From Squalus acanthias (Eukaryota): a stretch of 64,000 nucleotides of DNA. The stretch's first letter is position 1. Each line of letters begins with the position of its first letter. Positions 12,537 through 52,842 of this stretch are shown here, one piece after another. The position numbers and the translations under genes are program-made. Location of the stretch: the NCBI GenBank assembly GCA_030390025.1, contig JASTWF010000171.1, forward strand, positions 496,001-560,000, in the 5' to 3' direction. Below the pieces are notes generated by a model. The model saw only the letters and a program-made list of their open reading frames with translations, did no database searches and was not told the origin of the DNA.

Positions 12537-12578
12537 CCTGGCAACTGATGACGTGCCTAGCAGTATTTCTCTGATTGG
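12537..12578 (+). promoter_or_regulatory. MHC SXY-type enhancer: X1 (cctggcaactgatg), X2/CRE (tgacgt), Y box (ctgattgg)
   Basis: Close match to the canonical MHC X box CCTAGCAACAGATG with 20-bp X1-to-Y spacing; about 400 bp upstream of the ATG; second CCAAT near 12704 and TATA-like tttaatata near 12748. Confidence 0.85.
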
Positions 12579-12952: not shown

Positions 12953-13001
12953 ATGATTGGACTGATAGTGCTGGCCCTTCTGTGTGGAGGGGTCTCTGCA
13001 G
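12953..13001 (+). CDS. MHC class I exon 1, signal peptide MIGLIVLALLCGGVSA
   Basis: Hydrophobic leader ending VSA, donor CAG|gtgagt, phase 1 joins to GSHSLRYF. Confidence 0.9.
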
Positions 13002-19000: not shown

Positions 19001-22000
19001 GTGTGGGGGGTTGGTGTTTTGGGGTTCATGCCCTGATGTCTGTGTGTGGGGTTGGTGTTTTGGGGTTCATGTCCTGATGTCTGTGTGTGGGGGGTTGGTG
19101 TTTTGGGGTTCATGCCCTGATGTCTGTGTGTGGGGGGGTTGGTGTTTTGGGGTTCATGCCCTGATGTCTGTGTGTGGGGGGTTGGTGTTTTGGGGTTCAT
19201 GCCCTGATGTCTGTGTGTGTGTGGGGTTGGTGTTTTGGGGTCATGCCCTGATGTCTGTGTGTGTGTGGTTGGTGTTTTGGGGTTCATGCCCTGATGTCTG
19301 TGTGTGGGGGGTTGGTGTTTTGGGGTTCATGCCCTGATGTCTGTGTGTGTGGGGGGTTGGTGTTCATGTCCTGATGTCTGTGTGTGTGGGTTTGGTGTTT
19401 TGGGGTTCATGCTCTGATGTCTGTGTGTGTGTGGGCTTGGTGTTTTGGGGTTCACAGAATCACAGAATCCCCACAGTGCAGATAGAGGCCATTTCGGCCC
19501 ATCGAGCCTGCACCAACACATATCCCATCCTATCCCCGTAACCCCACGTATTTAATCCCCCCCTCACACTGAGGGTCAATTTATCGTAGCCAAATCAACC
19601 TAACCCGCACATCTTTGGACTGTGGGAGGAAACCGGAGCACCCGGAGGAAACCCACGCAGACACGGGGAGAATGTGCAAACTCCACACAGACAGTCACCC
19701 GTGGCCGGATTCGTACCGGGTCCCTGGCGCTGTGAGGCAACAGGGCTAACCACTATGCCATCGTGTTGCCCTGATGTTTCTGTGTGTGTGTTGGGTTGGT
19801 GTTTTGGGGTTCATGCCCTGAAGCGTATGTGTGTGTGTGTGGGGTTGGTATATTGGGGTTCATGCCCTGATGTTCCTGTGTGGTGGGGGTTGGTGTTTTG
19901 GGGTTCATGCCCTGATGTTCCTGTGTGGTGGGGGTTGGTGTTTTGGGGTTCATGTCCTGATGTCTGTGTGTGTGTGGTTGGTGTTTTTGGCTTCATGTCC
20001 TGATGTCTGTGTGTGTGTGTGTGTGTGTGGTGGTTGGTGTTTTGGGGTTCATGTCCTGATGTCTGTGTGTGGGTGGTTGGTGTTTTGGGGTTCATGTCCT
20101 GATGTCTGTGTGTGTGGGGTTGGTGTTTTGGGGTTCATGTCCTGATGTCTGTGTGTGTGGGGTTGGTGTTTTGGGGTTCACGCCCTGATGTCTGTGTGTG
20201 TGGGGGGGTTGGTGTTTTGGGGTTCATGCTCTGATGTCTGTGTGTGTGTGGGGGGTTGGTGTTTTGGGGTTCATGTCCTGATGTCTCTGTGTGTGGGGTT
20301 GGTGTTTTGGGGTTCATGTCCTGATGTCTGTGTGTGGGGGGTTGGTGTTTTGGGGTTCATGCCCTGATGTCTGTGTGTGTGTGGGGGGTTGGTGTTTTGG
20401 GGTTCATGCCCTGATGTCTGTGTCTGTGTGTGTGGGGTTGGTGTTTTGGGGTTCATGTCCTGATGTCTCTGTGTGTGTGTGGGGTTGGTGTTTTGGGGTT
20501 CATGTCCTGATGTCTGTGTGTGGGGGGTTGGTGTTTTGGGGTTCATGCCCTGATGTCTGTGTCTGTGTGTGTGGGGTTGGTGTTTTGGGGTTCATGTCCT
20601 GATGTCTGTGTGTGTGTGGGGGGTTGGTGTTTTGGGGTTCATGCCCTGATGTCTGTGTGTGTGTGGGGGGTTGGTGTTTTGGGGTTCATGTCCTGATGTC
20701 TGTGTGTGTGGGGGGTTGGTGTTTTGGGGTTCATGCCCTGATGTCTGTGTGTGGGGGGGGTTGGTGTTTTGGGGTTCATGCCCTGATGTCTGTGTGTGGG
20801 GGGTTGGTGTTTTGGGGTCCATGTCCTGATGTCTGTGTGTGTGTGTGTGTGGGGTTGGTGTTTTGGGGTTCATGTCCTGATGTCTCTGTGTGTGTGTGTG
20901 TGTGGGGTTGGTGTTTTGGGGTTCATGCCCTGATGTCTGTGTGGGGGGGTTGGTGTTTTGGGGTTCATGTCCTGATGTCTCTGTGTGTGTGTGTGTGGGG
21001 TTGGTGTTTTGGGGTTCATGCCCTGATGTCTGTGTGGGGGGGTTGGTGTTTTGGGGTTCATGCCCTGATGTCTCTGTGTGTGTGTGTGTGGGGTTGGTGT
21101 TTTGGGGTTCATGCCCTGATGTCTGTGTGGGGGGGTTGGTGTTTTGGGGTTCATGTCCTGATGTCTGTGTGTGTGTGTGTGTGGGGTTGGTGTTTTGGGG
21201 TTCATGCCCTGATGTCTGTGTGGGGGGGTTGGTGTTTTGGGGTTCATGCCCTGATGTCTGTGTGTGGGGGGTTGGTGTTTTGGGGTTCATGCCCTGATGT
21301 CTGTGTGGGGGGGGTTGGTGTTTTGGGGTTCATGCCCTGATGTCTGTGTGGGGGGGTTGGTGTTTTGGGGTTCATGCCCTGATGTCTGTGTGTGTGGGGT
21401 TGGTGTTTTGGGGTCCATGCCCTGATGTCTGTGTGTGTGGGGGGGGTTGGTGTTTTGGGGTTCATGCCCTGATGTCTGTGTGTGGGGGTTTGGTGTTTTG
21501 GGGTTCATGCCCTGATGTCTCTGTGTGTGGGGGGTTGGTGTTTTGGGGTTCATGCCCTGATGTCTGTGTGTGTGGGGTTGGTGTTTTGGGGTTCATGCCC
21601 TGATGTCTCTGTGTGTGGGGTTGGTGTTTTGGGGTTCATGCCCTGATGTCTGTGTGTGTGTGGGGTTGGTGTTTTGGGGTTCATGTCCTGATGTCTCTGT
21701 GTGTGGGGGGTTGGTGTTTTGGGGTTCATGTCCTGATGTCTGTGTGTGTGGGGGGGTTGGTGTTTTGGGGTTCATGCCCTGATGTCTGTGTGTGTGTGGG
21801 GTTGGTGTTTTGGGGTTCATGTCCTGATGTCTGTGTGTGTGGGGTTGGTGTTTTGGGGTTCATGCCCTGATGTCTGTGTGTGGGGGGTTGGTGTTTTGGG
21901 GTCCATGCCCTGATGTCTGTGTGTGTGTGGTTGGTGTTTTGGGGTTCATGCCCTGATGTCTGTGTGTGGGGGGTTGGTGTTTTGGGGTTCATGCCCTGAT

Positions 22001-25000
22001 GTCTGTGTGTGTGTGGGGGGTTGGTGTTCATGTCCTGATGTCTGTGTGTGTGGGGTTGGTGTTTTGGGGTTCATGCCCTGATGTCTGTGTGTGGGGGGTT
22101 GGTGTTTTGGGGTTCATGCCCTGATGTCTGTGTCTGTGTGTGTGGGGTTGGTGTTTTGGGGTTCATGTCCTGATGTCTCTGTGTGTGTGTGGGGTTGGTG
22201 TTTTGGGGTTCATGTCCTGATGTCTGTGTGTGGGGGGTTGGTGTTTTGGGGTTCATGTCCTGATGTCTGTGTGTGGGGGGTTGGTGTTTTGGGGTTCATG
22301 TCCTGATGTCTGTGTGTGTGTGTGGGGTTGGTGTTTTGGGGTCCATGCCCTGATGTCTGTGTGTGGGGGGTTGGTGTTTTGGGGTTCATGCCCTGATGTC
22401 TGTGTGTGTGGGGTTGGTGTTTTGGGGTTCATGCCCTGATGTCTGTGTGTGGGGGGTTGGTGTTTTGGGGTTCATGCCCTGATGTCTGTGTCTGTGTGTG
22501 TGGGGTTGGTGTTTTGGGGTTCATGTCCTGATGTGTCTGTGTGTGTGTGGGGGTTGGTGTTTTGGGGTTCATGCCCTGATGTCTGTGTGTGTGTGGGGGG
22601 TTGGTGTTTTGGGGTTCATGCCCTGATGTCTGTGTGTGGGGGTTGGTGTTTTGGGGTTCATGTCCTGATGTCTGTGTGTGTGGGGGGGGTTGGTGTTTTG
22701 GGGTTCATGCCCTGATGTCTGTGTGTGTGGGGGGTTGGTGTTCATGTCCTGATGTCTGTGTGTGTGGGGGGTTGGTGTTTTGGGGTTCATGCCCTGATGT
22801 CTGTGTGTGTGGGGGGTTGGTGTTCATGTCCTGATGTCTGTGTGTGTGGGTTTGGTGTTTTGGGGTTCATGCTCTGATGTCTGTGTGTGTGTGGGCTTGG
22901 TGTTTTGGGGTTCACAGAATCACAGAATCCCCACAGTGCAGATAGAGGCCATTTCGGCCCATCGAGCCTGCACCAACACATATCCCATCCTATCCCCGTA
23001 ACCCCACGTATTTAATCCCCCCCTCACACTGAGGGTCAATTTATCGTAGCCAAATCAACCTAACCCGCACATCTTTGGACTGTGGGAGGAAACCGGAGCA
23101 CCCGGAGGAAACCCACGCAGACACGGGGAGAATGTGCAAACTCCACACAGACAGTCACCCGTGGCCGGATTCGTACCGGGTCCCTGGCGCTGTGAGGCAA
23201 CAGGGCTAACCACTATGCCATCGTGTTGCCCTGATGTTTCTGTGTGTGTGTTGGGTTGGTGTTTTGGGGTTCATGCCCTGAAGCGTATGTGTGTGTGTGT
23301 GGGGTTGGTATATTGGGGTTCATGCCCTGATGTTCCTGTGTGGTGGGGGTTGGTGTTTTGGGGTTCATGCCCTGATGTTCCTGTGTGGTGGGGGTTGGTG
23401 TTTTGGGGTTCATGTCCTGATGTCTGTGTGTGTGTGTGTGTGTGTGGTTGGTGTTTTGGGGTTCATGTCCTGATGTCTGTGTGTGTGGGGTTGGTGTTTT
23501 GGGGTTCATGTCCTGATGTCTGTGTGTGTGGGGTTGGTGTTTTGGGGTTCACGCCCTGATGTCTGTGTGTGTGGGGTTGGTGTTTTGGGGTTCACGCCCT
23601 GATGTCTGTGTGTGTGTGGGGGGTTGGTGTTTTGGGGTTCATGCCCTGATGTCTGTGTGTGTGTGGTTGGTGTTTTGGGGTTCATGCCCTGATGTCTGTG
23701 TGTGGGGGGTTGGTGTTTTGGGGTTCATGCCCTGATGTCTGTGTGTGTGTGGGGGGTTGGTGTTCATGTCCTGATGTCTGTGTGTGTGGGGGGGTTGGTG
23801 TTTTGGGGTTCATGCTCTGATGTCTGTGTGTGTGGGGGGGGTTGGTGTTTTGGGGTTCATGTCCTGATGTCTCTGTGTGTGGGGTTGGTGTTTTGGGGTT
23901 CATGTCCTGATGTCTGTGTGTGGGGGGTTGGTGTTTTGGGGTTCATGCCCTGATGTCTGTGTGTGTGTGGGGGGTTGGTGTTTTGGGGTTCATGCCCTGA
24001 TGTCTGTGTCTGTGTGTGTGGGGTTGGTGTTTTGGGGTTCATGTCCTGATGTCTCTGTGTGTGTGTGGGGTTGGTGTTTTGGGGTTCATGTCCTGATGTC
24101 TGTGTGTGGGGGGTTGGTGTTTTGGGGTTCATGCCCTGATGTCTGTGTCTGTGTGTGTGGGGTTGGTGTTTTGGGGTTCATGTCCTGATGTCTGTGTGTG
24201 TGTGGGGGGTTGGTGTTTTGGGGTTCATGCCCTGATGTCTGTGTGTGTGTGTGGGGTTGGTGTTTTGGGGTTCATGTCCTGATGTCTCTGTGTGTGTGTG
24301 TGTGGGGTTGGTGTTTTGGGGTTCATGCCCTGATGTCTGTGTGGGGGGGTTGGTGTTTTGGGGTTCATGTCCTGATGTCTCTGTGTGTGTGTGTGTGGGG
24401 TTGGTGTTTTGGGGTTCATGCCCTGATGTCTGTGTGGGGGGGTTGGTGTTTTGGGGTTCATGCCCTGATGTCTCTGTGTGTGTGTGTGTGGGGTTGGTGT
24501 TTTGGGGTTCATGCCCTGATGTCTGTGTGGGGGGGTTGGTGTTTTGGGGTTCATGTCCTGATGTCTCTGTGTGTGTGTGTGTGGGGTTGGTGTTTTGGGG
24601 TTCATGCCCTGATGTCTGTGTGGGGGGGTTGGTGTTTTGGGGTTCATGCCCTGATGTCTGTGTGTGGGGGGTTGGTGTTTTGGGGTCCATGTCCTGATGT
24701 CTGTGTGTGTGGGGTTGGTGTTTTGGGGTTCATGCCCTGATGTCTGTGTGGGGGGGGGGTTGGTGTTTTGGGGTTCATGTCCTGATGTCTGTGTGTGGGG
24801 GGTTGGTGTTTTGGGGTTCATGTCCTGATGTCTGTGTGTGTGTGGGGGTTGGTGTTTTGGGGTTCATGTCCTGATGTCTGTGTGTGGGGGGTTGGTGTTT
24901 TGGGGTTCATGCCCTGATGTCTGTGTGTGTGTGGGGTTGGTGTTTTGGGGTTCATGTCCTGATGTCTGTGTGTGTGTGGGGTTGGTGTTTTGGGGTCCAT

Positions 25001-28000
25001 GTCCTGATGTCTCTGTGTGTGGGGGGTTGGTGTTTTGGGGTCCATGCCCTGATGTCTGTGTGTGTGTGGGGGGTTGGTGTTTTGGGGTCCATGCCCTGAT
25101 GTCTGTGTGTGTGGGGGGTTGGTGTTTTGGGGTCCATGCCCTGATGTCTGTGTGTGTGGGGGGGTTGGTGTTTTGGGGTTCATGCCCTGATGTCTGTGTG
25201 TGGGGGTTTGGTGTTTTGGGGTTCATGCCCTGATGTCTCTGTGTGTGGGGGGTTGGTGTTTTGGGGTTCATGCCCTGATGTCTGTGTGTGTGGGGTTGGT
25301 GTTTTGGGGTTCATGCCCTGATGTCTCTGTGTGTGGGGTTGGTGTTTTGGGGTTCATGCCCTGATGTCTGTGTGTGTGTGGGGTTGGTGTTTTGGGGTTC
25401 ATGTCCTGATGTCTCTGTGTGTGGGGGGTTGGTGTTTTGGGGTTCATGTCCTGATGTCTGTGTGTGTGGGGTTGGTGTTTTGGGGTTCATGCCCTGATGT
25501 CTGTGTGTGTGTGGGGTTGGTGTTTTGGGGTTCATGTCCTGATGTCTGTGTGTGTGGGGTTGGTGTTTTGGGGTTCATGCCCTGATGTCTGTGTGTGGGG
25601 GGTTGGTGTTTTGGGGTTCATGCCCTGATGTCTGTGTGTGTGTGGGGGGTTGGTGTTCATGTCCTGATGTCTGTGTGTGTGGGGTTGGTGTTTTGGGGTT
25701 CATGCCCTGATGTCTGTGTGTGGGGGGTTGGTGTTTTGGGGTTCATGCCCTGATGTCTGTGTCTGTGTGTGTGGGGTTGGTGTTTTGGGGTTCATGTCCT
25801 GATGTCTCTGTGTGTGTGTGGGGTTGGTGTTTTGGGGTTCATGTCCTGATGTCTGTGTGTGGGGGGTTGGTGTTTTGGGGTTCATGCCCTGATGTCTGTG
25901 TGTGTGGGGAGTTGGTGTTTTGGGGTCCATGTCCTGATGTCTGTGTGTGGGGGGTTGGTGTTTTGGGGTTCATGTCCTGATGTCTGTGTGTGTGTGTGGG
26001 GTTGGTGTTTTGGGGTCCATGCCCTGATGTCTGTGTGTGGGGGGTTGGTGTTTTGGGGTCCATGCCCTGATGTCTGTGTGTGGGGGGGTTGGTGTTTTGG
26101 GGTTCATGTCCTGATGTCTGTGTGTGTGGGGTTGGTGTTTTGGGGTTCATGCCCTGATGTCTGTGTGTGTGGGGTTGGTGTTTTGGGGTTCATGCCCTGA
26201 TGTCTGTGTGTGGGGGGTTGGTGTTTTGGGGTTCATGCCCTGATGTCTGTGTCTGTGTGTGTGGGGTTGGTGTTTTGGGGTTCATGTCCTGATGTCTGTG
26301 TGTGTGGGGGGTTGGTGTTTTGGGGTTCATGCCCTGATGTCTGTGTGTGTGGGGGGTTGGTGTTCATGTCCTGATGTCTGTGTGTGTGGGTTTGGTGTTT
26401 TGGGGTTCATGCTCTGATGTCTGTGTGTGTGTGGGCTTGGTGTTTTGGGGTTCACAGAATCACAGAATCCCCACAGTGCAGATAGAGGCCATTTCGGCCC
26501 ATCGAGCCTGCACCAACACATATCCCATCCTATCCCCGTAACCCCACGTATTTAATCCCCCCCTCACACTGAGGGTCAATTTATCGTAGCCAAATCAACC
26601 TAACCCGCACATCTTTGGACTGTGGGAGGAAACCGGAGCACCCGGAGGAAACCCACGCAGACACGGGGAGAATGTGCAAACTCCACACAGACAGTCACCC
26701 GTGGCCGGATTCGTACCGGGTCCCTGGCGCTGTGAGGCAACAGGGCTAACCACTATGCCATCGTGTTGCCCTGATGTTTCTGTGTGTGTGTTGGGTTGGT
26801 GTTTTGGGGTTCATGCCCTGAAGCGTATGTGTGTGTGTGTGGGGTTGGTATATTGGGGTTCATGCCCTGATGTTCCTGTGTGGTGGGGGTTGGTGTTTTG
26901 GGGTTCATGCCCTGATGTCTGTGTGTGTGTGGTTGGTGTTTTGGGCTTCATGTCCTGATGTCTGTGTGTGTGTGTGTGTGTGTGTGTGGTTGGTGTTTTG
27001 GGGTTCATGTCCTGATGTCTGTGTGTGGGTGGTTGGTGTTTTGGGGTTCATGTCCTGATGTCTGTGTGTGTGGGGTTGGTGTTTTGGGGTTCATGTCCTG
27101 ATGTCTGTGTGTGTGGGGTTGGTGTTTTGGGGTTCATGTCCTGATGTCTGTGTGTGTGGGGTTGGTGTTTTGGGGTTCACGCCCTGATGTCTGTGTGTGT
27201 GGGGTTGGTGTTTTGGGGTTCACGCCCTGATGTCTGTGTGTGTGGGGTTGGTGTTTTGGGGTTCATGCCCTGATGTCTCTGTGTGTGTGGTTGGTGTTTT
27301 GGGGTTCATGCCCTGATGTCTGTGTGTGTGGGGTTGGTGTTTTGGGGTTCATGCCCTGATGTCTGTGTGTGTGGGGGGTTGGTGTTTTGGGGTTCATGTC
27401 CTGATGTCTGTGTGTGTGTGGGGTTGGTGTTTTGGGGTTCATGCCCTGATGTCTGTGTGTGTGTGGGGGGTTGGTGTTTTGGGGTTCATGCCCTGATGTC
27501 TGTGTGTGTGGGGGGTTGGTGTTTTGGGGTTCATGTCCTGATGTCTGTGTGTGTGTGGGGGGTTGGTGTTTTGGGGTTCATGTCCTGATGTCTGTGTGTG
27601 TGTGGGGTTGGTGTTTTGGGGTTCATGTCCTGATGTCTCTGTGTGTGTGTGGGGTTGGTGTTTTGGGGTTCATGTCCTGATGTCTGTGTGTGTGTGGGGG
27701 GTTGGTGTTTTGGGGTTCATGTCCTGATGTCTGTGTGTGTGTGGGGTTGGTGTTTTGGGGTTCATGTCCTGATGTCTCTGTGTGTGGGGGGTTGGTGTTT
27801 TGGGGTTCATGTCCTGATGTCTGTGTGTGTGGGGTTGGTGTTTTGGGGTTCATGCCCTGATGTCTGTGTGTGTGTGGGGTTGGTGTTTTGGGGTTCATGT
27901 CCTGATGTCTGTGTGTGTGGGGTTGGTGTTTTGGGGTTCATGCCCTGATGTCTGTGTGTGGGGGGTTGGTGTTTTGGGGTTCATGCCCTGATGTCTGTGT

Positions 28001-29323
28001 GTGTGTGGGGGGTTGGTGTTCATGTCCTGATGTCTGTGTGTGTGGGGTTGGTGTTTTGGGGTTCATGCCCTGATGTCTGTGTGTGGGGGGTTGGTGTTTT
28101 GGGGTTCATGCCCTGATGTCTGTGTCTGTGTGTGTGGGGTTGGTGTTTTGGGGTTCATGTCCTGATGTCTCTGTGTGTGTGTGGGGTTGGTGTTTTGGGG
28201 TTCATGTCCTGATGTCTGTGTGTGGGGGGGTTGGTGTTTTGGGGTTCATGCCCTGATGTCTGTGTGTGTGGGGAGTTGGTGTTTTGGGGTCCATGTCCTG
28301 ATGTCTGTGTGTGGGGGGTTGGTGTTTTGGGGTTCATGTCCTGATGTCTGTGTGTGTGTGTGGGGTTGGTGTTTTGGGGTCCATGCCCTGATGTCTGTGT
28401 GTGGGGGGTTGGTGTTTTGGGGTCCATGCCCTGATGTCTGTGTGTGGGGGGGGTTGGTGTTTTGGGGTTCATGTCCTGATGTCTGTGTGTGTGGGGTTGG
28501 TGTTTTGGGGTTCATGCCCTGATGTCTGTGTGTGTGGGGTTGGTGTTTTGGGGTTCATGCCCTGATGTCTGTGTGTGGGGGGTTGGTGTTTTGGGGTTCA
28601 TGCCCTGATGTCTGTGTCTGTGTGTGTGGGGTTGGTGTTTTGGGGTTCATGTCCTGATGTCTGTGTGTGTGGGGGGTTGGTGTTTTGGGGTTCATGCCCT
28701 GATGTCTGTGTGTGTGGGGGGTTGGTGTTCATGTCCTGATGTCTGTGTGTGTGGGTTTGGTGTTTTGGGGTTCATGCTCTGATGTCTGTGTGTGTGTGGG
28801 CTTGGTGTTTTGGGGTTCACAGAATCACAGAATCCCCACAGTGCAGATAGAGGCCATTTCGGCCCATCGAGCCTGCACCAACACATATCCCATCCTATCC
28901 CCGTAACCCCACGTATTTAATCCCCCCCTCACACTGAGGGTCAATTTATCGTAGCCAAATCAACCTAACCCGCACATCTTTGGACTGTGGGAGGAAACCG
29001 GAGCACCCGGAGGAAACCCACGCAGACACGGGGAGAATGTGCAAACTCCACACAGACAGTCACCCGTGGCCGGATTCGTACCGGGTCCCTGGCGCTGTGA
29101 GGCAACAGGGCTAACCACTATGCCATCGTGTTGCCCTGATGTTTCTGTGTGTGTGTTGGGTTGGTGTTTTGGGGTTCATGCCCTGAAGCGTATGTGTGTG
29201 TGTGTGGGGTTGGTATATTGGGGTTCATGCCCTGATGTTCCTGTGTGGTGGGGGTTGGTGTTTTGGGGTTCATGCCCTGATGTCTGTGTGTGTGTGGTTG
29301 GTGTTTTTGGCTTCATGTCCTGA

Positions 29324-29355
<32 letters not shown>

Positions 29356-32300
29356 GTTGGTGTTTTGGGGTTCATGTCCTGATGTCTGTGTGTGGGTGGT
29401 TGGTGTTTTGGGGTTCATGCCCTGATGTCTCTGTGTGTGGGGTTGGTGTTTTGGGGTTCATGCCCTGATGTCTGTGTGTGTGTGGGGTTGGTGTTTTGGG
29501 GTTCATGTCCTGATGTCTGTGTGTGTGGGGTTGGTGTTTTGGGGTTCATGCCCTGATGTCTCTGTGTGTGGGGTTGGTGTTTTGGGGTTCATGCCCTGAT
29601 GTCTGTGTGTGTGTGGGGTTGGTGTTTTGGGGTTCATGTCCTGATGTCTCTGTGTGTGGGGGGTTGGTGTTTTGGGGTTCATGTCCTGATGTCTGTGTGT
29701 GTGGGGTTGGTGTTTTGGGGTTCATGCCCTGATGTCTGTGTGTGTGTGGGGTTGGTGTTTTGGGGTTCATGTCCTGATGTCTGTGTGTGGGGGGTTGGTG
29801 TTTTGGGGTTCATGCCCTGATGTCTGTGTGTGTGTGGGGGGTTGGTGTTCATGTCCTGATGTCTGTGTGTGTGGGGTTGGTGTTTTGGGGTTCATGCCCT
29901 GATGTCTGTGTGTGGGGGGTTGGTGTTTTGGGGTTCATGCCCTGATGTCTGTGTCTGTGTGTGTGGGGTTGGTGTTTTGGGGTTCATGTCCTGATGTCTC
30001 TGTGTGTGTGTGGGGTTGGTGTTTTGGGGTTCATGTCCTGATGTCTGTGTGTGGGGGGTTGGTGTTTTGGGGTTCATGCCCTGATGTCTGTGTGTGTGGG
30101 GAGTTGGTGTTTTGGGGTCCATGTCCTGATGTCTGTGTGTGGGGGGTTGGTGTTTTGGGGTTCATGTCCTGATGTCTGTGTGTGTGTGTGGGGTTGGTGT
30201 TTTGGGGTTCATGTCCTGATGTCTGTGTGTGTGTGGGGGGTTGGTGTTTTGGGGTTCATGTCCTGATGTCTGTGTGTGTGTGGGGGTTGGTGTTTTGGGG
30301 TTCATGTCCTGATGTCTGTGTGTGTGTGGGGGGTTGGTGTTTTGAGGTTCATGCCCTGATGTCTGTGTGTGGGGGGTTGGTGTTTTGGGGTCCATGCCCT
30401 GATGTCTGTGTGTGGGGGGGTTGGTGTTTTGGGGTTCATGTCCTGATGTCTGTGTGTGTGGGGTTGGTGTTTTGGGGTTCATGCCCTGATGTCTGTGTGT
30501 GTGGGGTTGGTGTTTTGGGGTTCATGCCCTGATGTCTGTGTGTGGGGGGTTGGTGTTTTGGGGTTCATGCCCTGATGTCTGTGTCTGTGTGTGTGGGGTT
30601 GGTGTTTTGGGGTTCATGTCCTGATGTCTGTGTGTGTGGGGGGTTGGTGTTTTGGGGTTCATGCCCTGATGTCTGTGTGTGTGGGGGGTTGGTGTTCATG
30701 TCCTGATGTCTGTGTGTGTGGGTTTGGTGTTTTGGGGTTCATGCTCTGATGTCTGTGTGTGTGTGGGCTTGGTGTTTTGGGGTTCACAGAATCACAGAAT
30801 CCGCACAGTGCAGATAGAGGCCATTTCGGCCCATCGAGCCTGCACCAACACATATCCCATCCTATCCCCGTAACCCCACGTATTTAATCCCCCCCTCACA
30901 CTGAGGGTCAATTTATCGTAGCCAAATCAACCTAACCCGCACATCTTTGGACTGTGGGAGGAAACCGGAGCACCCGGAGGAAACCCACGCAGACACGGGG
31001 AGAATGTGCAAACTCCACACAGACAGTCACCCGTGGCCGGATTCGTACCGGGTCCCTGGCGCTGTGAGGCAACAGGGCTAACCACTATGCCATCGTGTTG
31101 CCCTGATGTTTCTGTGTGTGTGTTGGGTTGGTGTTTTGGGGTTCATGCCCTGAAGCGTATGTGTGTGTGTGTGGGGTTGGTATATTGGGGTTCATGCCCT
31201 GATGTTCCTGTGTGGTGGGGGTTGGTGTTTTGGGGTTCATGCCCTGATGTCTGTGTGTGTGTGGTTGGTGTTTTTGGCTTCATGTCCTGATGTCTGTGTG
31301 TGTGTGTGTGTGTGTGTGTGGTTGGTGTTTTGGGGTTCATGTCCTGATGTCTGTGTGTGGGTGGTTGGTGTTTTGGGGTTCATGTCCTGATGTCTGTGTG
31401 TGTGGGGTTGGTGTTTTGGGGTTCATGTCCTGATGTCTGTGTGTGTGGGGTTGGTGTTTTGGGGTTCATGTCCTGATGTCTGTGTGTGTGGGGTTGGTGT
31501 TTTGGGGTTCACGCCCTGATGTCTGTGTGTGTGGGGTTGGTGTTTTGGGGTTCACGCCCTGATGTCTGTGTGTGTGGGGTTGGTGTTTTGGGGTTCATGC
31601 CCTGATGTCTCTGTGTGTGTGGTTGGTGTTTTGGGGTTCATGCCCTGATGTCTGTGTGTGTGGGGTTGGTGTTTTGGGGTTCATGCCCTGATGTCTGTGT
31701 GTGTGGGGGGTTGGTGTTTTGGGGTTCATGTCCTGATGTCTGTGTGTGTGTGGGGTTGGTGTTTTGGGGTTCATGCCCTGATGTCTGTGTGTGTGTGGGG
31801 GGTTGGTGTTTTGGGGTTCATGCCCTGATGTCTGTGTGTGTGGGGGGTTGGTGTTTTGGGGTTCATGTCCTGATGTCTGTGTGTGTGTGGGGGGTTGGTG
31901 TTTTGGGGTTCATGTCCTGATGTCTGTGTGTGTGTGGGGTTGGTGTTTTGGGGTTCATGTCCTGATGTCTCTGTGTGTGTGTGGGGTTGGTGTTTTGGGG
32001 TTCATGTCCTGATGTCTGTGTGTGTGTGGGGGGTTGGTGTTTTGGGGTTCATGTCCTGATGTCTGTGTGTGTGTGGGGTTGGTGTTTTGGGGTTCATGTC
32101 CTGATGTCTCTGTGTGTGGGGGGTTGGTGTTTTGGGGTTCATGTCCTGATGTCTGTGTGTGTGGGGTTGGTGTTTTGGGGTTCATGCCCTGATGTCTGTG
32201 TGTGTGTGGGGTTGGTGTTTTGGGGTTCATGTCCTGATGTCTGTGTGTGTGGGGTTGGTGTTTTGGGGTTCATGCCCTGATGTCTGTGTGTGGGGGGTTG

Positions 32301-35300
32301 GTGTTTTGGGGTTCATGCCCTGATGTCTGTGTGTGTGTGGGGGGTTGGTGTTCATGTCCTGATGTCTGTGTGTGTGGGGTTGGTGTTTTGGGGTTCATGC
32401 CCTGATGTCTGTGTGTGGGGGGTTGGTGTTTTGGGGTTCATGCCCTGATGTCTGTGTCTGTGTGTGTGGGGTTGGTGTTTTGGGGTTCATGTCCTGATGT
32501 CTCTGTGTGTGTGTGGGGTTGGTGTTTTGGGGTTCATGTCCTGATGTCTGTGTGTGGGGGGTTGGTGTTTTGGGGTTCATGCCCTGATGTCTGTGTGTGT
32601 GGGGAGTTGGTGTTTTGGGGTCCATGTCCTGATGTCTGTGTGTGGGGGGTTGGTGTTTTGGGGTTCATGTCCTGATGTCTGTGTGTGTGTGTGGGGTTGG
32701 TGTTTTGGGGTCCATGCCCTGATGTCTGTGTGTGGGGGGTTGGTGTTTTGGGGTCCATGCCCTGATGTCTGTGTGTGGGGGGGTTGGTGTTTTGGGGTTC
32801 ATGTCCTGATGTCTGTGTGTGTGGGGTTGGTGTTTTGGGGTTCATGCCCTGATGTCTGTGTGTGTGGGGTTGGTGTTTTGGGGTTCATGCCCTGATGTCT
32901 GTGTGTGGGGGGTTGGTGTTTTGGGGTTCATGCCCTGATGTCTGTGTCTGTGTGTGTGGGGTTGGTGTTTTGGGGTTCATGTCCTGATGTCTGTGTGTGT
33001 GGGGGGTTGGTGTTTTGGGGTTCATGCCCTGATGTCTGTGTGTGTGGGGGGTTGGTGTTCATGTCCTGATGTCTGTGTGTGTGGGTTTGGTGTTTTGGGG
33101 TTCATGCTCTGATGTCTGTGTGTGTGTGGGCTTGGTGTTTTGGGGTTCACAGAATCACAGAATCCCCACAGTGCAGATAGAGGCCATTTCGGCCCATCGA
33201 GCCTGCACCAACACATATCCCATCCTATCCCCGTAACCCCACGTATTTAATCCCCCCCTCACACTGAGGGTCAATTTATCGTAGCCAAATCAACCTAACC
33301 CGCACATCTTTGGACTGTGGGAGGAAACCGGAGCACCCGGAGGAAACCCACGCAGACACGGGGAGAATGTGCAAACTCCACACAGACAGTCACCCGTGGC
33401 CGGATTCGTACCGGGTCCCTGGCGCTGTGAGGCAACAGGGCTAACCACTATGCCATCGTGTTGCCCTGATGTTTCTGTGTGTGTGTTGGGTTGGTGTTTT
33501 GGGGTTCATGCCCTGAAGCGTATGTGTGTGTGTGTGGGGTTGGTATATTGGGGTTCATGCCCTGATGTTCCTGTGTGGTGGGGGTTGGTGTTTTGGGGTT
33601 CATGCCCTGATGTCTGTGTGTGTGTGGTTGGTGTTTTTGGCTTCATGTCCTGATGTCTGTGTGTGTGTGTGTGTGTGTGTGTGGTTGGTGTTTTGGGGTT
33701 CATGTCCTGATGTCTGTGTGTGGGTGGTTGGTGTTTTGGGGTTCATGTCCTGATGTCTGTGTGTGTGGGGTTGGTGTTTTGGGGTTCATGTCCTGATGTC
33801 TGTGTGTGTGGGGTTGGTGTTTTGGGGTTCATGTCCTGATGTCTGTGTGTGTGGGGTTGGTGTTTTGGGGTTCACGCCCTGATGTCTGTGTGTGTGGGGT
33901 TGGTGTTTTGGGGTTCACGCCCTGATGTCTGTGTGTGTGGGGTTGGTGTTTTGGGGTTCATGCCCTGATGTCTCTGTGTGTGTGGTTGGTGTTTTGGGGT
34001 TCATGCCCTGATGTCTGTGTGTGGGGGGTTGGTGTTTTGGGGTTCATGTCCTGATGTCTGTGTGTGTGTGGGGTTGGTGTTTTGGGGTTCATGCCCTGAT
34101 GTCTGTGTGTGTGTGGGGGGTTGGTGTTTTGGGGTTCATGCCCTGATGTCTGTGTGTGTGGGGGGTTGGTGTTTTGGGGTTCATGTCCTGATGTCTGTGT
34201 GTGTGTGGGGGGTTGGTGTTTTGGGGTTCATGTCCTGATGTCTGTGTGTGTGTGGGGTTGGTGTTTTGGGGTTCATGTCCTGATGTCTCTGTGTGTGTGT
34301 GGGGTTGGTGTTTTGGGGTTCATGTCCTGATGTCTCTGTGTGTGTGTGGGGTTGGTGTTTTGGGGTTCATGTCCTGATGTCTGTGTGTGTGTGGGGGTTG
34401 GTGTTTTGGGGTTCATGTCCTGATGTCTGTGTGTGTGTGGGGTTGGTGTTTTGGGGTTCATGTCCTGATGTCTCTGTGTGTGTGGGTTTGGTGTTTTGTG
34501 GTTCATGCCCTGATGTCTGTGTGTGTGTGAGGTTGGTGTTTTGGGGTTCATGTCCTGATATCTCTGTGTGTGTGGGTTTGGTGTTTTGGGGTTCATGCCC
34601 TGATGTCTGTGTGTGTGGGGGGGTTGGTGTTTTGGGGTTCATGTCCTGATGTCTGTGTGTGGGGGGTTGGTGTTTTGGGGTTCATGCCCTGATGTCTGTG
34701 TGTGTGGGGAGTTGGTGTTTTGGGGTTCATGTCCTGATGTCTGTGTGTGTGTGGGGGGTTGGTGTTTTGGGGTTCATGCCCTGATGTCTGTGTGTGTGTG
34801 GGGAGTTGGTGTTTTGGGGTTCATGTCCTGATGTCTGTGTGTGGGGGGTTGGTGTTTTGGGGTCCATGTCCTGATGTCTGTGTGTGGGGGGTTGGTGTTT
34901 TGGGGTTCATGCCCTGATGTCTGTGTGTGGGTGGTTGGTGTTTTGGGGTTCATGCCCTGATGTCTGTGTGTGTGGGGAGTTGGTGTTTGGGGGTTCATGT
35001 CCTGATGTCTGTGTGTGTGGGGTTGGTGTTTTGGGGTTCATGTCCTGATATCTGTGTGTGTGTGGGGGTTGGTGTTTTGGGGTTCATGCCCTGATGTCTG
35101 TGTGTGTGGGGGGTTGGTGTTTTGGGGTTCATGCCCTGATGTCTGTGTGTGTGGGGGGTTGGTGTTTTGGGGTTCATGCCCTGATGTCTGTGTGTGTGGG
35201 GGGTTGGTGTTTTGGGGTTCATGCCCTGATGTCTGTGTGTGGGGGGTTGGTGTTTTGGGGTTCATGCTCTGATGTCTGTGTGTGTGTGGGGGGTTGGTGT

Positions 35301-38300
35301 TTTGGGGTTCATGCCCTGATGTCTGTGTGTGTGGTTGGTGTTTTGGGGTTCATGCCCTGATGTCTGTGTGTGTGGGGGGTTGGTGTTTTGGGGTTCATGT
35401 CCTGATGTCTGTGTGTGGGGGGGTTGGTGTTTTGGGGTTCATGCCCTGATGTCTGTGTGTGGGGGGTTGGTGTTTTGGGGTTCATGTCCTGATGTCTGTG
35501 TGTGCGGGGGGTTGGTGTTCATGTCCTGATGTCTGTGTGTGTGGGTTTGGTGTTTTGGGGTTCATGCTCTGATGTCTGTGTGTGTGTGGGCTTGGTGTTT
35601 TGGGGTTCACAGAATCACAGAATCCCCACAGTGCAGATAGAGGCCATTTCGGCCCATCGAGCCTGCACCAACACATATCCCATCCTATCCCCGTAACCCC
35701 ACGTATTTAATCCCCCCCTCACACTGAGGGTCAATTTATCGTAGCCAAATCAACCTAACCCGCACATCTTTGGACTGTGGGAGGAAACCGGAGCACCCGG
35801 AGGAAACCCACGCAGACACGGGGAGAATGTGCAAACTCCACACAGACAGTCACCCGTGGCCGGATTCGTACCGGGTCCCTGGCGCTGTGAGGCAACAGGG
35901 CTAACCACTATGCCATCGTGTTGCCCTGATGTTTCTGTGTGTGTGTTGGGTTGGTGTTTTGGGGTTCATGCCCTGAAGCGTATGTGTGTGTGTGTGGGGT
36001 TGGTATATTGGGGTTCATGTCCTGATGTCTCTGTGTGGGGGGTTGGTGTTTTGGGGTTCATGCCCTGATGTCTCTGTGTGTGTGTGGGGTTGGTGTTTTG
36101 GGGTTCATGTCCTGATGTCTCTGTGTGGGGGGTTGGTGTTTTGGGGTTCATGTCCTGATGTCTGTGTGTGTGTGTGTGGTTGGTGTTTTGGGGTTCATGT
36201 CCTGATGTCTGTATGTGTGGGGGGTTGGTGTTCTGGGGTTCTTGCCCTGATGTCTCTCTCTCTCTCTGTGTTTCAGGTTCTCACTCTCTCCGGTATTTCC
36301 TTACCACCATAACTCCAATTCCCGGTCTGCCGCAGTTTGTGGGTGTCGGGTATGTGGACGAGGTCCAGTTTGTTATGTACGACAGTGATCGGAAGGAGTT
36401 GATCCCGAGGGAGCAGTGGATGGTGGAGAGTGAGGGGCCCGAGTCCTGGCAGCGGAAATTTCAGCTCGCTCAGGAACGGGAGGTGTATCACAAGGCACAG
36501 ATTCAGATGCTCATGACCCGGACCAACCAGTCGGGAGGTGAGTCCTCGCCCTCCCGCCGCGATCGGGCTCTTTCTCTGGGTTGAGGGTGGCCGGGTGGGA
36601 ATGGGGAGCGAGCTGTGGAGTGGAGCGAGCTCAGGGAGCCAGGGTCCCCGGGAAAAGAGGCACTCCATCTCCCAGACCAGGGGCAGCGACCAATGGGGAG
36701 CGGCCTCACATCAGTCCTTTAATTACACAGATCAGGAACCGAGGGGTGGGGGTGGAGGCCCCTTTAAATATTTAGATCAGGAATTGGGGGGTCCTTCAAA
36801 TTTATATCCCATGTTCTTTGGTTCCTTTTATTAGAAATCAATGTCTTTAGTCTTTTAAAATGCAGATTGGTTTTCGGTGTTTTTAGTTCATAGCTCGGGT
36901 TCCGGGGGTTCTTTAAATGCACAGATCTGGAAACAGGCGGGGGGGATCCTTTAAATACCGCCTGCTTCCCAGGTGTGTCTGACCAGCTGAGGGACAGTGG
37001 GGCGGGTCTCCCGGTGGGACTGAGTCTGATTGGCTGTGTGTGTGTTTGATCGACAGGGATCCACACGTACCAGGTGATGATTGGCTGTGACCTGAGGGAC
37101 GATGGGACCACGAGCGGGTTTGTCCAGTTCGGCTGGGACGGGCGAGACCTCATCAGCTTCGACAAGGATCACCTGGTGTGGGTCACTCCGGTCCTATGGG
37201 GAGAGAGCATCAAGAACAGGAAGGACCAGGACACAGTCGGCAACCTGGGGTGGAAGAATTACCTGGAGGTGGAGTGTATCGAGTGGCTGAGGAAATACCT
37301 GCAGTACGGACAGCGGGGACTGAGAGTGGGTGAGTGAGGGGGGACTGAGAGTGGGCGAGTGAGGGGGGACTGAGAGTGGGCGAGTGAGGTGCAGTGACTC
37401 TCGATATCGCGGTTCCTTTACTAAATCCTCTTTCTTTCTCTCTCAGTCCCACCCATCGTGTCCTTTATCCGTCCGGGGGAAGCTAACCGCCTCTTCTGTG
37501 TCGTCACCGGGTTTTACCCGCAAGCCATCGAGGTGACTCTGTGGAGAGATGGAATGTTGGTCGATGAGACTCAGTCCAGTGGGATCCTGCCCAATCACGA
37601 CAGCACCTACCAGATCCAGAAATGGGTGGAGTTTGACCCCAAGGACCAGGCTGAGTATTCCTGTCAGGTGGAGCACAGTGGGCTGGAGGAGATGGTGATG
37701 GTGATTTATGGTAAGACTCTCTCTCACTGTTAGAGGGGACCCAGCCTGGGACAGACCCACAAGGGGGAGGGTCAGTGCTGAGCTCCCAGCCTGGGACAGA
37801 CCCACAGGAGGGAGGGTCAGTGCTGAGCTCCCAGCCCAGGACAGGCCCACAGGAGGGAGGGTCAGTGCTGAGCTCCCAGCCCGGGACAGACCCACAGGAG
37901 GGAGGGTCAGTGCTGAGCTCCCAGCCTCGGGACAGACCCACAGGAGGGAGGGTCAGTGCTGAGCTCCCAGCCTGGGACAGACCCACAGGAGGGAGGGTCA
38001 GTGCTGAGCTCCCAGCCCAGGACAGGCCCACAGGAGGGAGGGTCAGTGCTGAGCTCCCAGCCCGGGACAGACCCACAGGAGGGAGGGTCAGTGCTGAGCT
38101 CCCAGCCTCGGGACAGACCCACAGGAGGGAGGGTCAGTGCTGAGCTCCCAGCCCGGGACAGGCCCACAGGAGGGAGGGTCAGTGCTGAGCTCCCAGCCTG
38201 GGACAGACCCACAGGAGGGAGGGTCAGTGCTGAGCTCCCAGCCTGGGACAGACCCACAGGAGGGAGGGTCAGTGCTGAGCTCCCAGCCCGGGACAGACCC

Positions 38301-41038
38301 ACAGGAGGGAGGGTCAGTGCTGATCTCCCAGCCTGGGACAGACCCACAGGAGGGAGGGTCAGTGCTGAGCTCCCAGCCTGGGACAGGCCCACAGGAGGGA
38401 GGGTCAGTGCTGAGCTCCCAGCCCGGGACAGACCCACTGGAGGAAGGGTCAGTGCTGAACTCCCAGCCTGGGACAAACCCACAGGGGGGAGGGTCAGTGC
38501 TGAGCTCCCAGCCCGGGACAGGTTGGAGTCAGGCTACAGAGAGAGCGGAAGAATTATTAACTTTCAACATGTTCATGTCATCACAGCATTTATCGAGCCG
38601 CTGTATCCTGGGATATTACGGTCCACGGTGGATCCTGGGATATTACGGTCCACGGTGGATCCTGGGATATTACGGTCCACGGTGGATCCTGGGATATTAC
38701 GGTCCACGGTGGATCCTGGGATATTACGGTCCACGGTGGATCCTGGGATATTACGGTCCACGGTGGATCCTGGGATATTACGGTCCACGGTGGATCCTGG
38801 GATATTACGGTCCACGGTGGATCCTGGGATATTACGGTCCACGGTGGATCCTGGGATATTACGGTCCACGGTGGATCCTGGGATATTACGGTCCACGGTG
38901 GATCCTGGGATATTACGGTCCACGGTGGATCCTGGGATATTACGGTCCACGGTGGATCCTGGGATATTACGGTCCACGGTGGATCCTGGGATATTACGGT
39001 CCACGGTGGATCCTGGGATATTACGGTCCACGGTGGATCCTGGGATATTACGGTCCACGGTGGATCCTGGGATATTACGGTCCACGGTGGATCCTGGGAT
39101 ATTACGGTCCACGGTGGATCCTGGGATATTACGGTCCACGGTGGATCCTGGGATATTACGGTCCACGGTGGATCCTGGGATATTACGGTCCACGGTGGAT
39201 CCTGGGATATTACGGTCCACGGTGGATCCTGGGATATTACGGTCCACGGTGGATCCTGGGATATTACGGTCCACGGTGGATCCTGGGATATTACGGTCCA
39301 CGGTGGATCCTGGGATATTACGGTCCACGGTGGATCCTGGGATATTACGGTCCACGGTGGATCCTGGGATATTACGGTCCACGGTGGATCCTGGGATATT
39401 ACGGTCCACGGTGGATCCTGGGATATTACGGTCCACGGTGGATCCTGGGATATTACGGTCCACGGTGGATCCTGGGATATTACGGTCCACGGTGGATCCT
39501 GGGATATTACGGTCCACGGTGGATCCTGGGATATTACGGTCCACGGTGGATCCTGGGATATTACGGTCCACGGTGGATCCTGGGATATTACGGTCCACGG
39601 TGGATCCTGGGATATTACGGTCCACGGTGGATCCTGGGATATTACAGTCCACGGTGGATCCTGGGATATTACTGTCCACGGTGGATCCTGGGATATTACT
39701 GTCCACGGTGGATCCTGGGATATTACTGTCCACGGTGGATTTTGGGATATTACTGTCCACGGTGTATTTTGGGATATTACTGTATGAGGACACGGTGTAT
39801 CCCTGTCTGTCTCTGATTCTCTCACTCTCTCTCTCTCTCTCAGTACCGAAGTCTGAGTCCATGGTCCCTGCTATTGTTGGTGTGATTGGGGTCCTCGGGC
39901 TGCTCATCGCTCTCTCCATTGTAGCTGTCGTCATCTACAGAAAGAAAGGTAGGAAATGGAGACAAAATGGTCGCGTCCCCACTGGGGGAGGGAGGGAGGG
40001 GCCTGGATTGGGAGGAGGGGCCAGGTTGGAGGTGGCGGGGTCCTTTAAGGGGGGGGCAGGGGCCCAGTGTCAGGGGGATGGCCCGGTGGTGGGTGGAAGT
40101 GTACTGGGCTGGAGGGTGAAGGGCCCAGGTGTTGGGGCTCTGAGTGTGGGGGAGGGGCTCTGGGTGAGGCGGCGGGGCTCTGGGTGAGGGCGAGAGGATC
40201 TGGGTGAGGGGGCGGGTCTCTGGGTGAGGTGGCGGGGCTCTGGGTGAGGGGAAGGGGCCCAGGGTGAGGGGCTGGGGCTCTGGGTTAGGGGGGAGGGGCT
40301 CTGGGTGAGGGCGAGAGGATCTGGGGGAGGGGGCGGGGCTGGGGCTCTGGGTGGGCAGAGCCACGTTGGGGGGTGATCCTCTCTCTTCTCTGACTGTCGG
40401 TGTCTCGTCACTCACTGAGCGTTCCTTGTTTTACAGTGGGAGGGAAGAGCGGCTACAATCCTACAACCAGTAAGCTGATCATCAAACATCCTCTGCATCT
40501 CTGGAACACTGAATCGTTGCTCATTCTGTGTCTGATACACTGAACAGTTTATTACTCTGTGTCTCCCTCTGTCTGTCTGGCTCTCTGTCTCTGTCTCTCT
40601 CTCTCTCTCTCTCTGTGACTGTCTNNNNNNNNNNNNNNNNNNNNNNNNNNNNNNNNNNNNNNNNNNNNNNNNNNNNNNNNNNNNNNNNNNNNNNNNNNNN
40701 NNNNNNNNNNNNNNNNNNNNNNNNNNNNNNNNNNNNNNNNNNNNNNNNNNNNNNNNNNNNNNNNNNNNNNNNNNNNNNNNNNNNNNNNNNNNNNNNNNNN
40801 NNNNNNNNNNNNNNNNNNNNNNNNNNNNNNNNNNNTCTCTGTTTCTGGCTCTGTCTCTCACTCTGTGACTGGCTCTGTCTCTCTTTTTCTGGCTCTGTCT
40901 CCCTCCTTCTGTCTCTCTATTTCTCTCTGTCTCGCTCTCTCTCTCTCTATGACAATGAACAGTTTATTAATGCCTGTCCTTCCATTAACAGCTTCTAATC
41001 AAGGGGAATCCTCCTGCAGCTCCTCCGCCAATGCCTGA
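12953..41038 (+). CDS. MHC class I heavy chain gene, probably non-classical (spliced, 7 coding exons, 1032 nt, 343 aa)
   Basis: join(12953-13001,36277-36537,37057-37329,37447-37710,39844-39948,40437-40469,40992-41038) is an uninterrupted ORF with phase-1 GT-AG junctions and class I domain hallmarks. Confidence 0.95.
13002..13423. repeat. 62-bp minisatellite starting at the exon 1 donor, about 6.8 copies
   Basis: Units start at 13002, 13064, 13126, 13188, 13250, 13312, 13376. Confidence 0.95.
13495..14400 (-). mobile_element. CR1 3' fragment in intron 1
   Basis: LHRLGLYSLEYRRLRGNLIEVFK and FYTQRVVEIW; CR1 tail near 13500. Confidence 0.88.
19453..19771 (-). mobile_element. HE1-like V-SINE copy 1 embedded in the minisatellite
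   Basis: Minus strand has a tRNA head (tggcatagtgg, ggtacgaatcc), V-core tgtgtggagtttgcacattctccccgtgtctgcgtgggtttcctccggg and a CR1-type tail (gattctgt)n. Confidence 0.9.
22913..23231 (-). mobile_element. HE1-like V-SINE copy 2
   Basis: Appears identical to copy 1 with the same junctions. Confidence 0.9.
26453..26771 (-). mobile_element. HE1-like V-SINE copy 3
   Basis: Appears identical to copy 1. Confidence 0.9.
28818..29136 (-). mobile_element. HE1-like V-SINE copy 4
   Basis: Appears identical to copy 1. Confidence 0.9.
30785..31103 (-). mobile_element. HE1-like V-SINE copy 5
   Basis: As copy 1 except c>g at 30803. Confidence 0.9.
33148..33466 (-). mobile_element. HE1-like V-SINE copy 6
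   Basis: Appears identical to copy 1. Confidence 0.9.
35608..35926 (-). mobile_element. HE1-like V-SINE copy 7
   Basis: Appears identical to copy 1. Confidence 0.9.
36277..36537 (+). CDS. MHC class I exon 2, alpha1 domain
   Basis: GSHSLRYFLT, GYVDEVQFVMYDSD, EGPESW, RTNQSG (N86 sequon); tttcag acceptor and gtgagt donor. Confidence 0.97.
37057..37329 (+). CDS. MHC class I exon 3, alpha2 domain
   Basis: GIHTYQVMIGCDL, WDGRDLISFD, YLEVECIEWLRKYL with the C101-C164 pair. Confidence 0.97.
37315..37389. repeat. 25-bp repeat x3 spanning the exon 3 donor
   Basis: ggggactgagagtgggYgagtgagg at 25-bp period. Confidence 0.9.
37447..37710 (+). CDS. MHC class I exon 4, alpha3 Ig C1 domain
   Basis: LFCVVTGFYPQAIEVTLWRDG, LPNHDSTYQ, YSCQVEHSGL. 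Confidence 0.97.
37740..38522. repeat. 45-bp minisatellite in intron 4, about 17 copies, with a 181-bp 4-mer higher-order unit
   Basis: cccagcctgggacagacccacaggagggagggtcagtgctgagct; ORF starts recur at 37775, 37956, 38137. Confidence 0.95.
38605..39803. repeat. 27-bp VNTR in intron 4 (atcctgggatattacggtccacggtgg), about 38 perfect plus about 6 degenerate copies
   Basis: Directly visible. Confidence 0.98.
39844..39948 (+). CDS. MHC class I exon 5, connecting peptide and transmembrane helix
   Basis: VPKSESMVPAIVGVIGVLGLLIALSIVAVVIYRKK; (ct)n-cag acceptor and gtagga donor. Confidence 0.95.
40150..40352. repeat. G-rich degenerate tandem repeat (ggggctctgggtgagg) in intron 5
   Basis: About 9 imperfect copies of ~21-23 bp. 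Confidence 0.8.
40437..40469 (+). CDS. MHC class I exon 6, cytoplasmic (VGGKSGYNPTT)
   Basis: 33-nt exon with the conserved class I tail Tyr; ttacag acceptor and gtaagc donor. Confidence 0.88.
40625..40835. other. Assembly gap (211 N) within a CT-rich microsatellite in intron 6
   Basis: Run of N. Confidence 1.
40992..41038 (+). CDS. MHC class I exon 7, Ser-rich cytoplasmic end and stop (TSNQGESSCSSSANA*)
   Basis: Acceptor ttaacag; TGA followed by G|gtatga donor. Confidence 0.85.
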
Positions 41039-51800: not shown

Positions 51801-52842
51801 ATTTTCGGGTTGGCAGGCTGTAACTAGTGGGGTACCGCAAGGATCAGTGCTTGGGCCTCAGCTATTCACAATCTACATCAAAGATTTGGATGAGGGGACC
51901 ATATGTAATATATCCAAGTTTGCTGATGATACAAAGCTGGGTGGGAATGTAAGTTGTGAGGAGGATGCAAGGAGGCTTCAAGGGGATATAGACAGGCTAA
52001 GTGAGTGGGCTAGAACATGGCAAATGGAATATAATGTGGAGAAATATGAAGTTATCCACTTTGGTAGGAAAAATAAAAAAGCAGAATATTGTTTAAATGG
52101 AGAGAGATTGGGAAATGTTGGTGTTCAGAGGGACCTGGGTGTCCTTGTACACGAATCACTGAAAGTTAACATGCAGGTACAGCAAGCAATTAGGAAAGCA
52201 AATGGTATATTGGCCTTTATTACAAGAGGATTTGAGTATAAGAGTAAAGACGTCTTACTGCAATTATATTGGGCCCTGGTGAGACCACACCTGGAGTATT
52301 GTGTACAGTTTTGGTCTCCTTACCTAAGGAAGGATATACTTGCCATAGAGGGAGTGCAACGAAGATTCACCAGACTGGTTCCTGGGATAGGGGGATCGTT
52401 CCTATGAGGAGAGATGGAGCAGACGAGGCCTATATTCTCTAGAGTTTAGAAGAATGAGAGGTGATCTCATTGAAACATACAAAATTCTTACAGGGTTTGT
52501 CAGGGTAGATGCAGGGAGGATGTTTCCCCTGGCTGGGGAGTCCAGAACCAGGGGTCACAGTCTCAGAATAAGGGTCGTCCATTTAGGACTGAGAGGAGGA
52601 GAAATTTCTTCACTCAGAGGGTGGTGAATCTTTGGAATTCTCTACCCCAGAGGGCTGTGGAGGCTCAGTCATTGAGTATATTCAAGACAGAGATCCATAG
52701 ATTTTTGAATATTAAGGGAATCAAGGGATATGGGGATAGGGCAGGAAAGTGGAGATGAGGTAGAAGATCAGCCATGATCTTATTAAATGGCGGAGCAGGC
52801 TCGAAGGGCTGAATGGCCTCCTCCTCCTCCTATTTCTTGTGC
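48856..52842 (+). mobile_element. CR1 LINE ORF2 (APE and RT), same family as 1696-5421, multiple stops, interrupted by an antisense CR1
   Basis: LKALYLNVQS, GDFN, SDH, NYRPVSLTS, GVPQGSVLGP, KFADD and a 3' tail at 52790-52842. Confidence 0.93.
49261..50290 (-). mobile_element. Young 5'-truncated CR1 nested antisense in the previous element
   Basis: Open 303-aa RT C-terminus (49360-50271) and (atagaaac)n tail. Confidence 0.93.

Follow-up and report, generated by a model that had tools for sequence, protein, structure and literature searches.

The UBA genes of sharks are a family of MHC class I genes that was reportedly first described in 1997 and later mapped in shark genomes. The accessible text of PMC12562908 presents UBA, with reference to Bartl 1997, as a family that arose from UAA and expanded, and the accessible parts of PMC10751288 describe UBA as multicopy, with a UBA cluster that lies away from the class Ia region and is flanked by c4 and rxrb, and give the functions of these lineages as unknown. 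The available portion of PMC6523485 holds nothing on UBA. Here we describe a further gene of this kind, found in a 64-kb window (64,000 nucleotides of a Squalus acanthias contig, JASTWF010000171.1, positions 496,001 to 560,000 of the forward strand).

The window contains an intact MHC class I gene on the forward strand, with seven exons encoding 343 aa between positions 12953 and 41038 (Table 1). An earlier sequence-only reading had recognized an intact class I molecule at 36277..37329, which comprises just exons 2 and 3 of the seven. These alpha1 and alpha2 exons do have AG/GT ends in phase 1 and are free of stops, and their class I identity is not due to chance, as the best solved relative, the shark class I structure 6LUP, matches them with E-values of 1.2e-31 and 4.7e-28. 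Joined, exons 1 to 6 form 328 codons without a stop, and exon 7 completes the protein. The X-box-like, CRE and Y-box elements in front of exon 1, read by eye against what we take to be the consensus motifs, probably constitute an MHC promoter module.

Table 1. Features of the class I gene; positions are counted from the first nucleotide of the 64-kb window.
Feature	Position	Strand	Basis
Candidate MHC promoter module: X-box-like element, CRE (TGACGT), Y box (CTGATTGG), X-Y spacing 20 bp	12537..12578	+	By eye
Exon 1, leader peptide (16 aa)	12953..13001	+	3' letters in loose contig ends before alpha1, runs X2, X5, X9
Intron 1, 23 kb	13002..36276	+	Mostly 43-nt minisatellite, 14764-35609, about 467 units
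Exon 2, alpha1 domain (Y7, S59, K63, R70, H74, R84, N86 sequon)	36277..36537	+	ORF, splice ends, 6LUP match
Exon 3, alpha2 domain (L123, I143, R146, K147, W156, Y159, E163, W167, Y171; C101-C164)	37057..37329	+	GT..AG joints on both sides, 4/4 runs
K147 codon AAG (TGG in two paralogs)	37221..37223	+	Difference-free contigs across the codon in X1, X2, X5
Exon 4, alpha3 Ig C1 domain	37447..37710	+	Sequence match
Exon 5, transmembrane segment	39844..39948	+	Starts the loose ends behind 37710 in X2, X5
Exon 6, cytoplasmic, conserved GYNP tyrosine	40437..40469	+	Predicted; sequence only
Exon 7, serine-rich tail and stop	40992..41038	+	Predicted from resemblance to relatives' tails; sequence only

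The gene is real, intact and spliced. Contigs from the four runs examined (X1, X2, X5 and X9, out of nine listed, from three studies and under two organism labels) skip introns 2 and 3 exactly, with GT..AG ends, in every run, and in three runs the depth over intron 2 is at most 7 as against hundreds on the exons. None of the runs is recorded as RNA, and we guessed them to be so; they are read as transcripts because exact splicing is what transcripts give, and the contigs report neither level nor tissue. With regard to the low polymorphism and the restricted or low expression expected of UBA, pieces of alpha2 are identical to the gene in three of the four runs, as contigs that cannot tell paralogs from alleles, nor the gene from an exon-identical twin on the same contig. 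The TGG (W147) form is present beside the AAG (K147) form in X1, X2 and X5, and X9 carries no alternative letter at that codon. A 210-nt skip inside alpha1 with CT..TG ends, seen in one X5 contig, was set aside as a likely paralog or assembly artefact.

The sequence-only reading had offered the gene as a candidate non-classical lineage. Its non-classical character was borne out, but a lineage of its own was not, as the gene nests in the described non-classical UBA clade, which already has these residues. Protein searches yielded 124 proteins, of which 98 were kept for a tree of 104 rows; most tetrapod rows, one fused model and rows without alpha1 or alpha2 were left out. This tree puts the gene and the UBA reference together in a clade of 44 rows (SH-aLRT 96), and in a 46-row mixture-model tree of the joined domains the gene falls in a 20-row clade with the same reference (99/96). 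The domain-wise phylogeny that had been proposed as a check likewise places the gene with the UBA reference for alpha1 (99/90) and for alpha2 (99/96), while alpha3 by itself gives no resolution of its placement. In the tree of the AU-test analysis the UBA clade has support of 100/100, and the test rejects a grouping of the gene with the UAA-like genes of this genome and a dogfish class I row (p-AU 0.000264). The test does not reject a tree in which the gene and two paralogs stand apart from every other UBA row (p-AU 0.214), so that the gene is only loosely placed, either inside the clade or at its base; it branches beside a sawshark row, outside the galeomorph sharks, which would suggest a squalomorph host. 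Membership in the UBA clade is thus what the trees demonstrate, and the gene is almost certainly a member of the known shark UBA lineage.

The trees held no UDA, UCA, UEA, UFA or UGA row, and these lineages were set aside by identity or by eye. Identity to UBA rows reaches 77%, compared with 35-38% for this genome's UGA-like alpha2 exons and 27-32% for its most distant class I alpha2 matches, values which rule out UCA, UEA, UFA and UGA, lineages marked by deep divergence and a hydrophobic groove, in a comparison without a curated UEA or UFA row. UDA, which keeps most anchors and is single copy, was ruled out by eye against the accessible supplement rows. A Heptranchias protein, P0069, branches by its alpha1 as sister of the UBA clade (K63, L66) and by its alpha2 among UAA-like rows; to judge from these two domains, it is possibly an intermediate or a recombinant that bears on how UBA arose from UAA.

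The nearest named relatives differ from the gene in instructive places. The protein P0019 agrees by eye, letter for letter, with the row 'Gcirratum_UBA_AAC60347' in the accessible supplement of PMC10751288, where nurse shark UBA (O19479 = AAC60347) is so labelled; this reference carries K63, L123, I143, R146 and F59 in place of Y59. It shares the clade of the window gene with horn shark O19480 (elasmobranch MHC-Ib UBA), at domain identities of 62/68/71% and 78/75/79%, respectively. K63, I143, W156, E163 and the loss of Y59 are common to all three, and L123 and R146 are common to the window gene and nurse shark UBA; the UBA lineage, like the genes found here, is multicopy. The UBA references, however, have W147 and F or A at 59, where the window gene has K147 and S59, and the nurse shark reference has M/F at 70/74 and F159 against R70, H74 and Y159. 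Classical UAA (nurse shark, PDB 6LUP; identity 59/62/51% per domain) resembles the gene in fold, exon layout, beta2m contacts and the residues Y7, R84, Y159, W167 and Y171. It forms a separate clade, however, adjoins TAP/PSMB8/9 and has nine of the nine residues that anchor peptide termini, whereas the window gene, by residue count, keeps four. Most non-UBA rows keep seven to nine, and the near-complete set of classical UAA is not found here. In MR1, a Schiff-base lysine lies deep in the A' pocket. The window gene has L45 at what we take to be roughly the equivalent position, and its matches to MR1 reflect the shared fold. Shark UDA is non-classical, as is the window gene, but by eye the accessible supplement's row for nurse shark UDA keeps Y59, E63, T143, K146 and W147, and UDA is single copy.

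HLA-A2 numbering was set on the HLA-A2 row of the accessible PMC10751288 supplement, and the residues named in the sequence-only reading were recovered in full. Those kept are Y7, R84, N86, Q96, C101, D119, G120, D122, Y159, C164, W167 and Y171, among them the beta2m contacts Q96, D119, G120 and D122; both disulfides are retained, C101/C164 in alpha2 and two cysteines in alpha3. Those changed are S59, K63, R70, H74, L123, I143, R146 and K147. After removal of six outgroups and two duplicates, 43 rows of the UBA clade were set against 53 rows of other shark and ray chains; the compared columns themselves contributed to the tree that defined the two groups, and related rows are not independent. 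Y59 occurs in none of the UBA rows and in 47 of the others, K63 in 39 as against 1, and I143 in 36 as against 1. R146 (17 UBA rows), R70 (12) and H74 (2) are absent from the others. L123, although present, is not diagnostic (11 UBA rows, 16 of the 53 others) and was rejected as a lineage marker. Because K63, I143 and the loss of Y59 are near-universal in UBA, most of what had been described as a rewired groove is, on these alignments, a family signature.

Position 147 behaves differently. Tryptophan is found in 28 of the 43 UBA rows and 51 of the 53 others, and another residue (L, C, K, R or F) in 14 of the 42 UBA rows filled at this position as against 2 of the 53. K147 itself is limited to three UBA rows (0/53 elsewhere), including a bamboo shark protein, P0005, and a sawshark protein, P0021, with R147 in one further UBA row, P0009, so that three further sharks have a basic residue at 147. 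Both P0005 and P0021 have K63, and P0005 also has I143 and R146. As neither is a sister of the window gene and their relatives keep W147, K147 appears to have separate origins. On the tree, position 147 changes 13 times and a basic 147 requires four changes, and since R147 exists, the two-step route from TGG to AAG may have passed through an arginine codon. Judged by these rows, W147K alone is unusual within UBA and likely alters the hold on one ligand end. Entropy within UBA is low at 45, 63, 66, 163 and 167, and high at 146 and 147.

Five UBA copies with alpha1, alpha2 and alpha3 occur in this genome, three on the window contig (C812) and two on C3328, which fits the multicopy UBA of PMC10751288 as far as its accessible text goes; three of the five are near-identical and may include assembly duplicates. 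K147 is found in three copies and W147 in two, the two forms being about 90% identical. One K147 copy equals the window gene in the six matched exons (the leader lies outside the match), another differs from it in alpha1 and alpha2 solely by L123F, and one W147 paralog has lost the sequon through N86I. The identical copy, 193 kb from the window gene (L054, C812:338.5-348.4 kb), agrees with it in 401 bp downstream as well, but its intron 2 holds an insertion of about 430 bp and its minisatellite lengths differ; it looks like either the product of a very recent duplication or a haplotype that entered the assembly twice.

Among the matches listed on C812 (893 kb) and C3328 (353 kb), both short contigs, none is TAP-like, proteasome, C3/C4-like or RXR, and matches to PF12465 fall on C14 and C16 only. 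C3487 carries TAP-like (ABC-membrane) and proteasome-like matches next to a class I alpha1 exon that has Y59 and E63, and this is, from its residues and neighbours, the probable classical class I locus. On C3751 (878-1298 kb; L006-L010, L036-L038, L040, L041) we noted five UAA-like class I genes with S143 rather than T, together with two distant Ig-C1 matches at 784 and 989 kb, for which tapasin-like is a guess; TAP-like and proteasome matches are absent from those listed there.

We consider it moderately probable that the window gene encodes a spliced, non-classical UBA class I chain which pairs with beta2-microglobulin and likely presents a narrow set of short peptides, held otherwise than in classical class I. 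The heavy chain would be membrane-anchored at the cell surface (class Ib), its pairing with beta2-microglobulin being predicted. In class I molecules, positions 63 and 163 lie opposite one another at the groove's N-terminal end. Since K63 co-occurs with acidic 163 (39 of 42 UBA rows as against 18 of 53 others; K63 and D/E163 together in 37 of 38 UBA rows), a K63-E163 salt bridge that neutralizes K63 is probable. With Y7, Y159, W167 and Y171 kept and K63, acidic 163, L45 and L66 fixed, this end is probably a salt-bridged, family-constant pocket, while the C-terminal end would vary between copies. In the window gene R84, R146 and K147 would be able to bind a carboxylate there despite the loss of T143 and W147, which would favour acidic ligand ends. 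Whether the ligand is of peptide type is, in our judgement, an even call, a narrow peptide set being the best guess that we infer, and the more hydrophobic grooves of UBA (mean 0.36 as against -0.20 in the others; 0.23 in the window gene) leave room for non-peptide ligands. By analogy alone, the receptor would likely be one of innate-like T cells or of the NK type. The predicted fold of the relative P0005 (K63, R146, K147; 50-row alignment; mean pLDDT 77.1) has 6LUP as its best match (TM 0.93, rmsd 1.9), and this model shows an ordinary class I fold only.

The same UBA gene might instead have a groove built for anionic, non-standard ligands such as phosphopeptides, acidic peptides or phosphorylated metabolites, which we regard as unlikely. 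The sequence-only reading had proposed a positively charged groove of this type, and the charge itself stood: a residue count over 33 groove positions, which we take to be those of HLA-A2 work, gives five K/R residues plus H74 and a net +4. UBA grooves are also more basic than others on average (+2.13, SD 1.38, n=38, as against +1.29, SD 1.62, n=52; Mann-Whitney p 0.013, with rows that are not independent), and the four tree changes to a basic 147 and the K147 form in runs from three studies point in the same direction. The ligand preference drawn from that charge fared less well. At least +4 is reached by 6 of 38 UBA rows and, at +4 or +5, by 3 of 52 classical-type chains, one W147-keeping paralog scores +4 as well, K63 is accompanied by acidic 163, and classical class I likewise has R84 and a basic 146; by this count the basic character of the groove is mild. 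A more specific version, in which UBA combines the constant salt-bridged pocket (K63-E163, L45, L66) with a W147 that turned basic separately in at least four shark lineages, so that R84, R146 and K147 form a tri-basic pocket that takes acidic or phosphorylated ligands, seems to us distinctly improbable, but if true it would describe an anion-binding subtype of class I that recurs among sharks. Neither the pairing of K63 with E163 nor the repeated change of 147 to a basic residue was met in the literature searched, though Almeida 2020, 2021 and Bartl 1997 may already show them.

A rather unlikely alternative is that the family is redundant, that selection on its C-terminal anchors has lapsed and that W147K came about by drift or by gene conversion, the molecule having a largely ligand-independent role, for example as an NK-type ligand. 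The frequent departures from W147 in UBA and the 13 changes at that position would suit such relaxation, as would the paralog comparison, in which groove pS (0.12-0.15) is raised along with pN (0.09-0.14) and pN/pS stays below 1, showing no sign of positive selection over these few sites. Yet non-synonymous change is three to five times denser in groove codons than elsewhere (pN 0.025-0.034), one groove end is strongly conserved across UBA, and the copy is intact and spliced. It is very improbable, finally, that the gene represents a class I lineage of its own or a divergent allele of classical UAA; the retained Y7, R84, Y159 and Y171 could be read that way, and the trio as sister to the other UBA rows passes the AU test (p 0.214), but against it are the UBA clade, supported by the joined domains and by alpha1 and alpha2 singly, the AU rejection of a UAA grouping, the UBA signature residues and a separate classical-type locus adjoining TAP-like and proteasome-like matches. 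As a gene, the copy in the window is ordinary, being one further member of a known multi-copy family; the K147 and W147 copies in one genome nevertheless form a natural pair for the ligand question.

Other class I loci were noted in passing. The CD1-like UGA lineage is represented by at least 19 alpha2 exons, 15 of them on C26 (32.76-38.36 Mb; L011, L013-L017, L019, L021-L024, L026-L028 and L030, one with a stop) and the rest on C3263, C2252, C1054 and C99. L013 matches PDB 9CH4 (E 2e-42), whose letters equal the nurse shark UGA row of the accessible supplement. Because UGA is single- or low-copy in the accessible text of PMC12562908, this set of exons looks, from these matches, like a large UGA expansion, possibly of more interest than the window gene. 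About ten divergent class I alpha3 exons cluster on C3663, where the alpha1 of L042 resembles by eye the 'Gcirratum_UCA' row (UCA/UEA type) of the accessible supplement. A lone divergent class I alpha2 exon (L029, C26:30.71 Mb, 33% identity) lies between C3/C4-like and RXR matches and is, by eye, close to none of the accessible supplement's shark rows.

Within the window itself, the same SINE-like insert of about 300 bp occurs seven times inside the 43-nt minisatellite of intron 1 (14764-36257; near 19590, 23050, 26590, 28955, 30922, 33285 and 35745), and inserts and minisatellite together make up a higher-order repeat with units of 2-3.5 kb. ORF translations, read by eye, show LINE-type (CR1/L2-like) and GIY-YIG/Penelope-type retroelement fragments at 2250-5351, 49360-52407 and 53766-55133.
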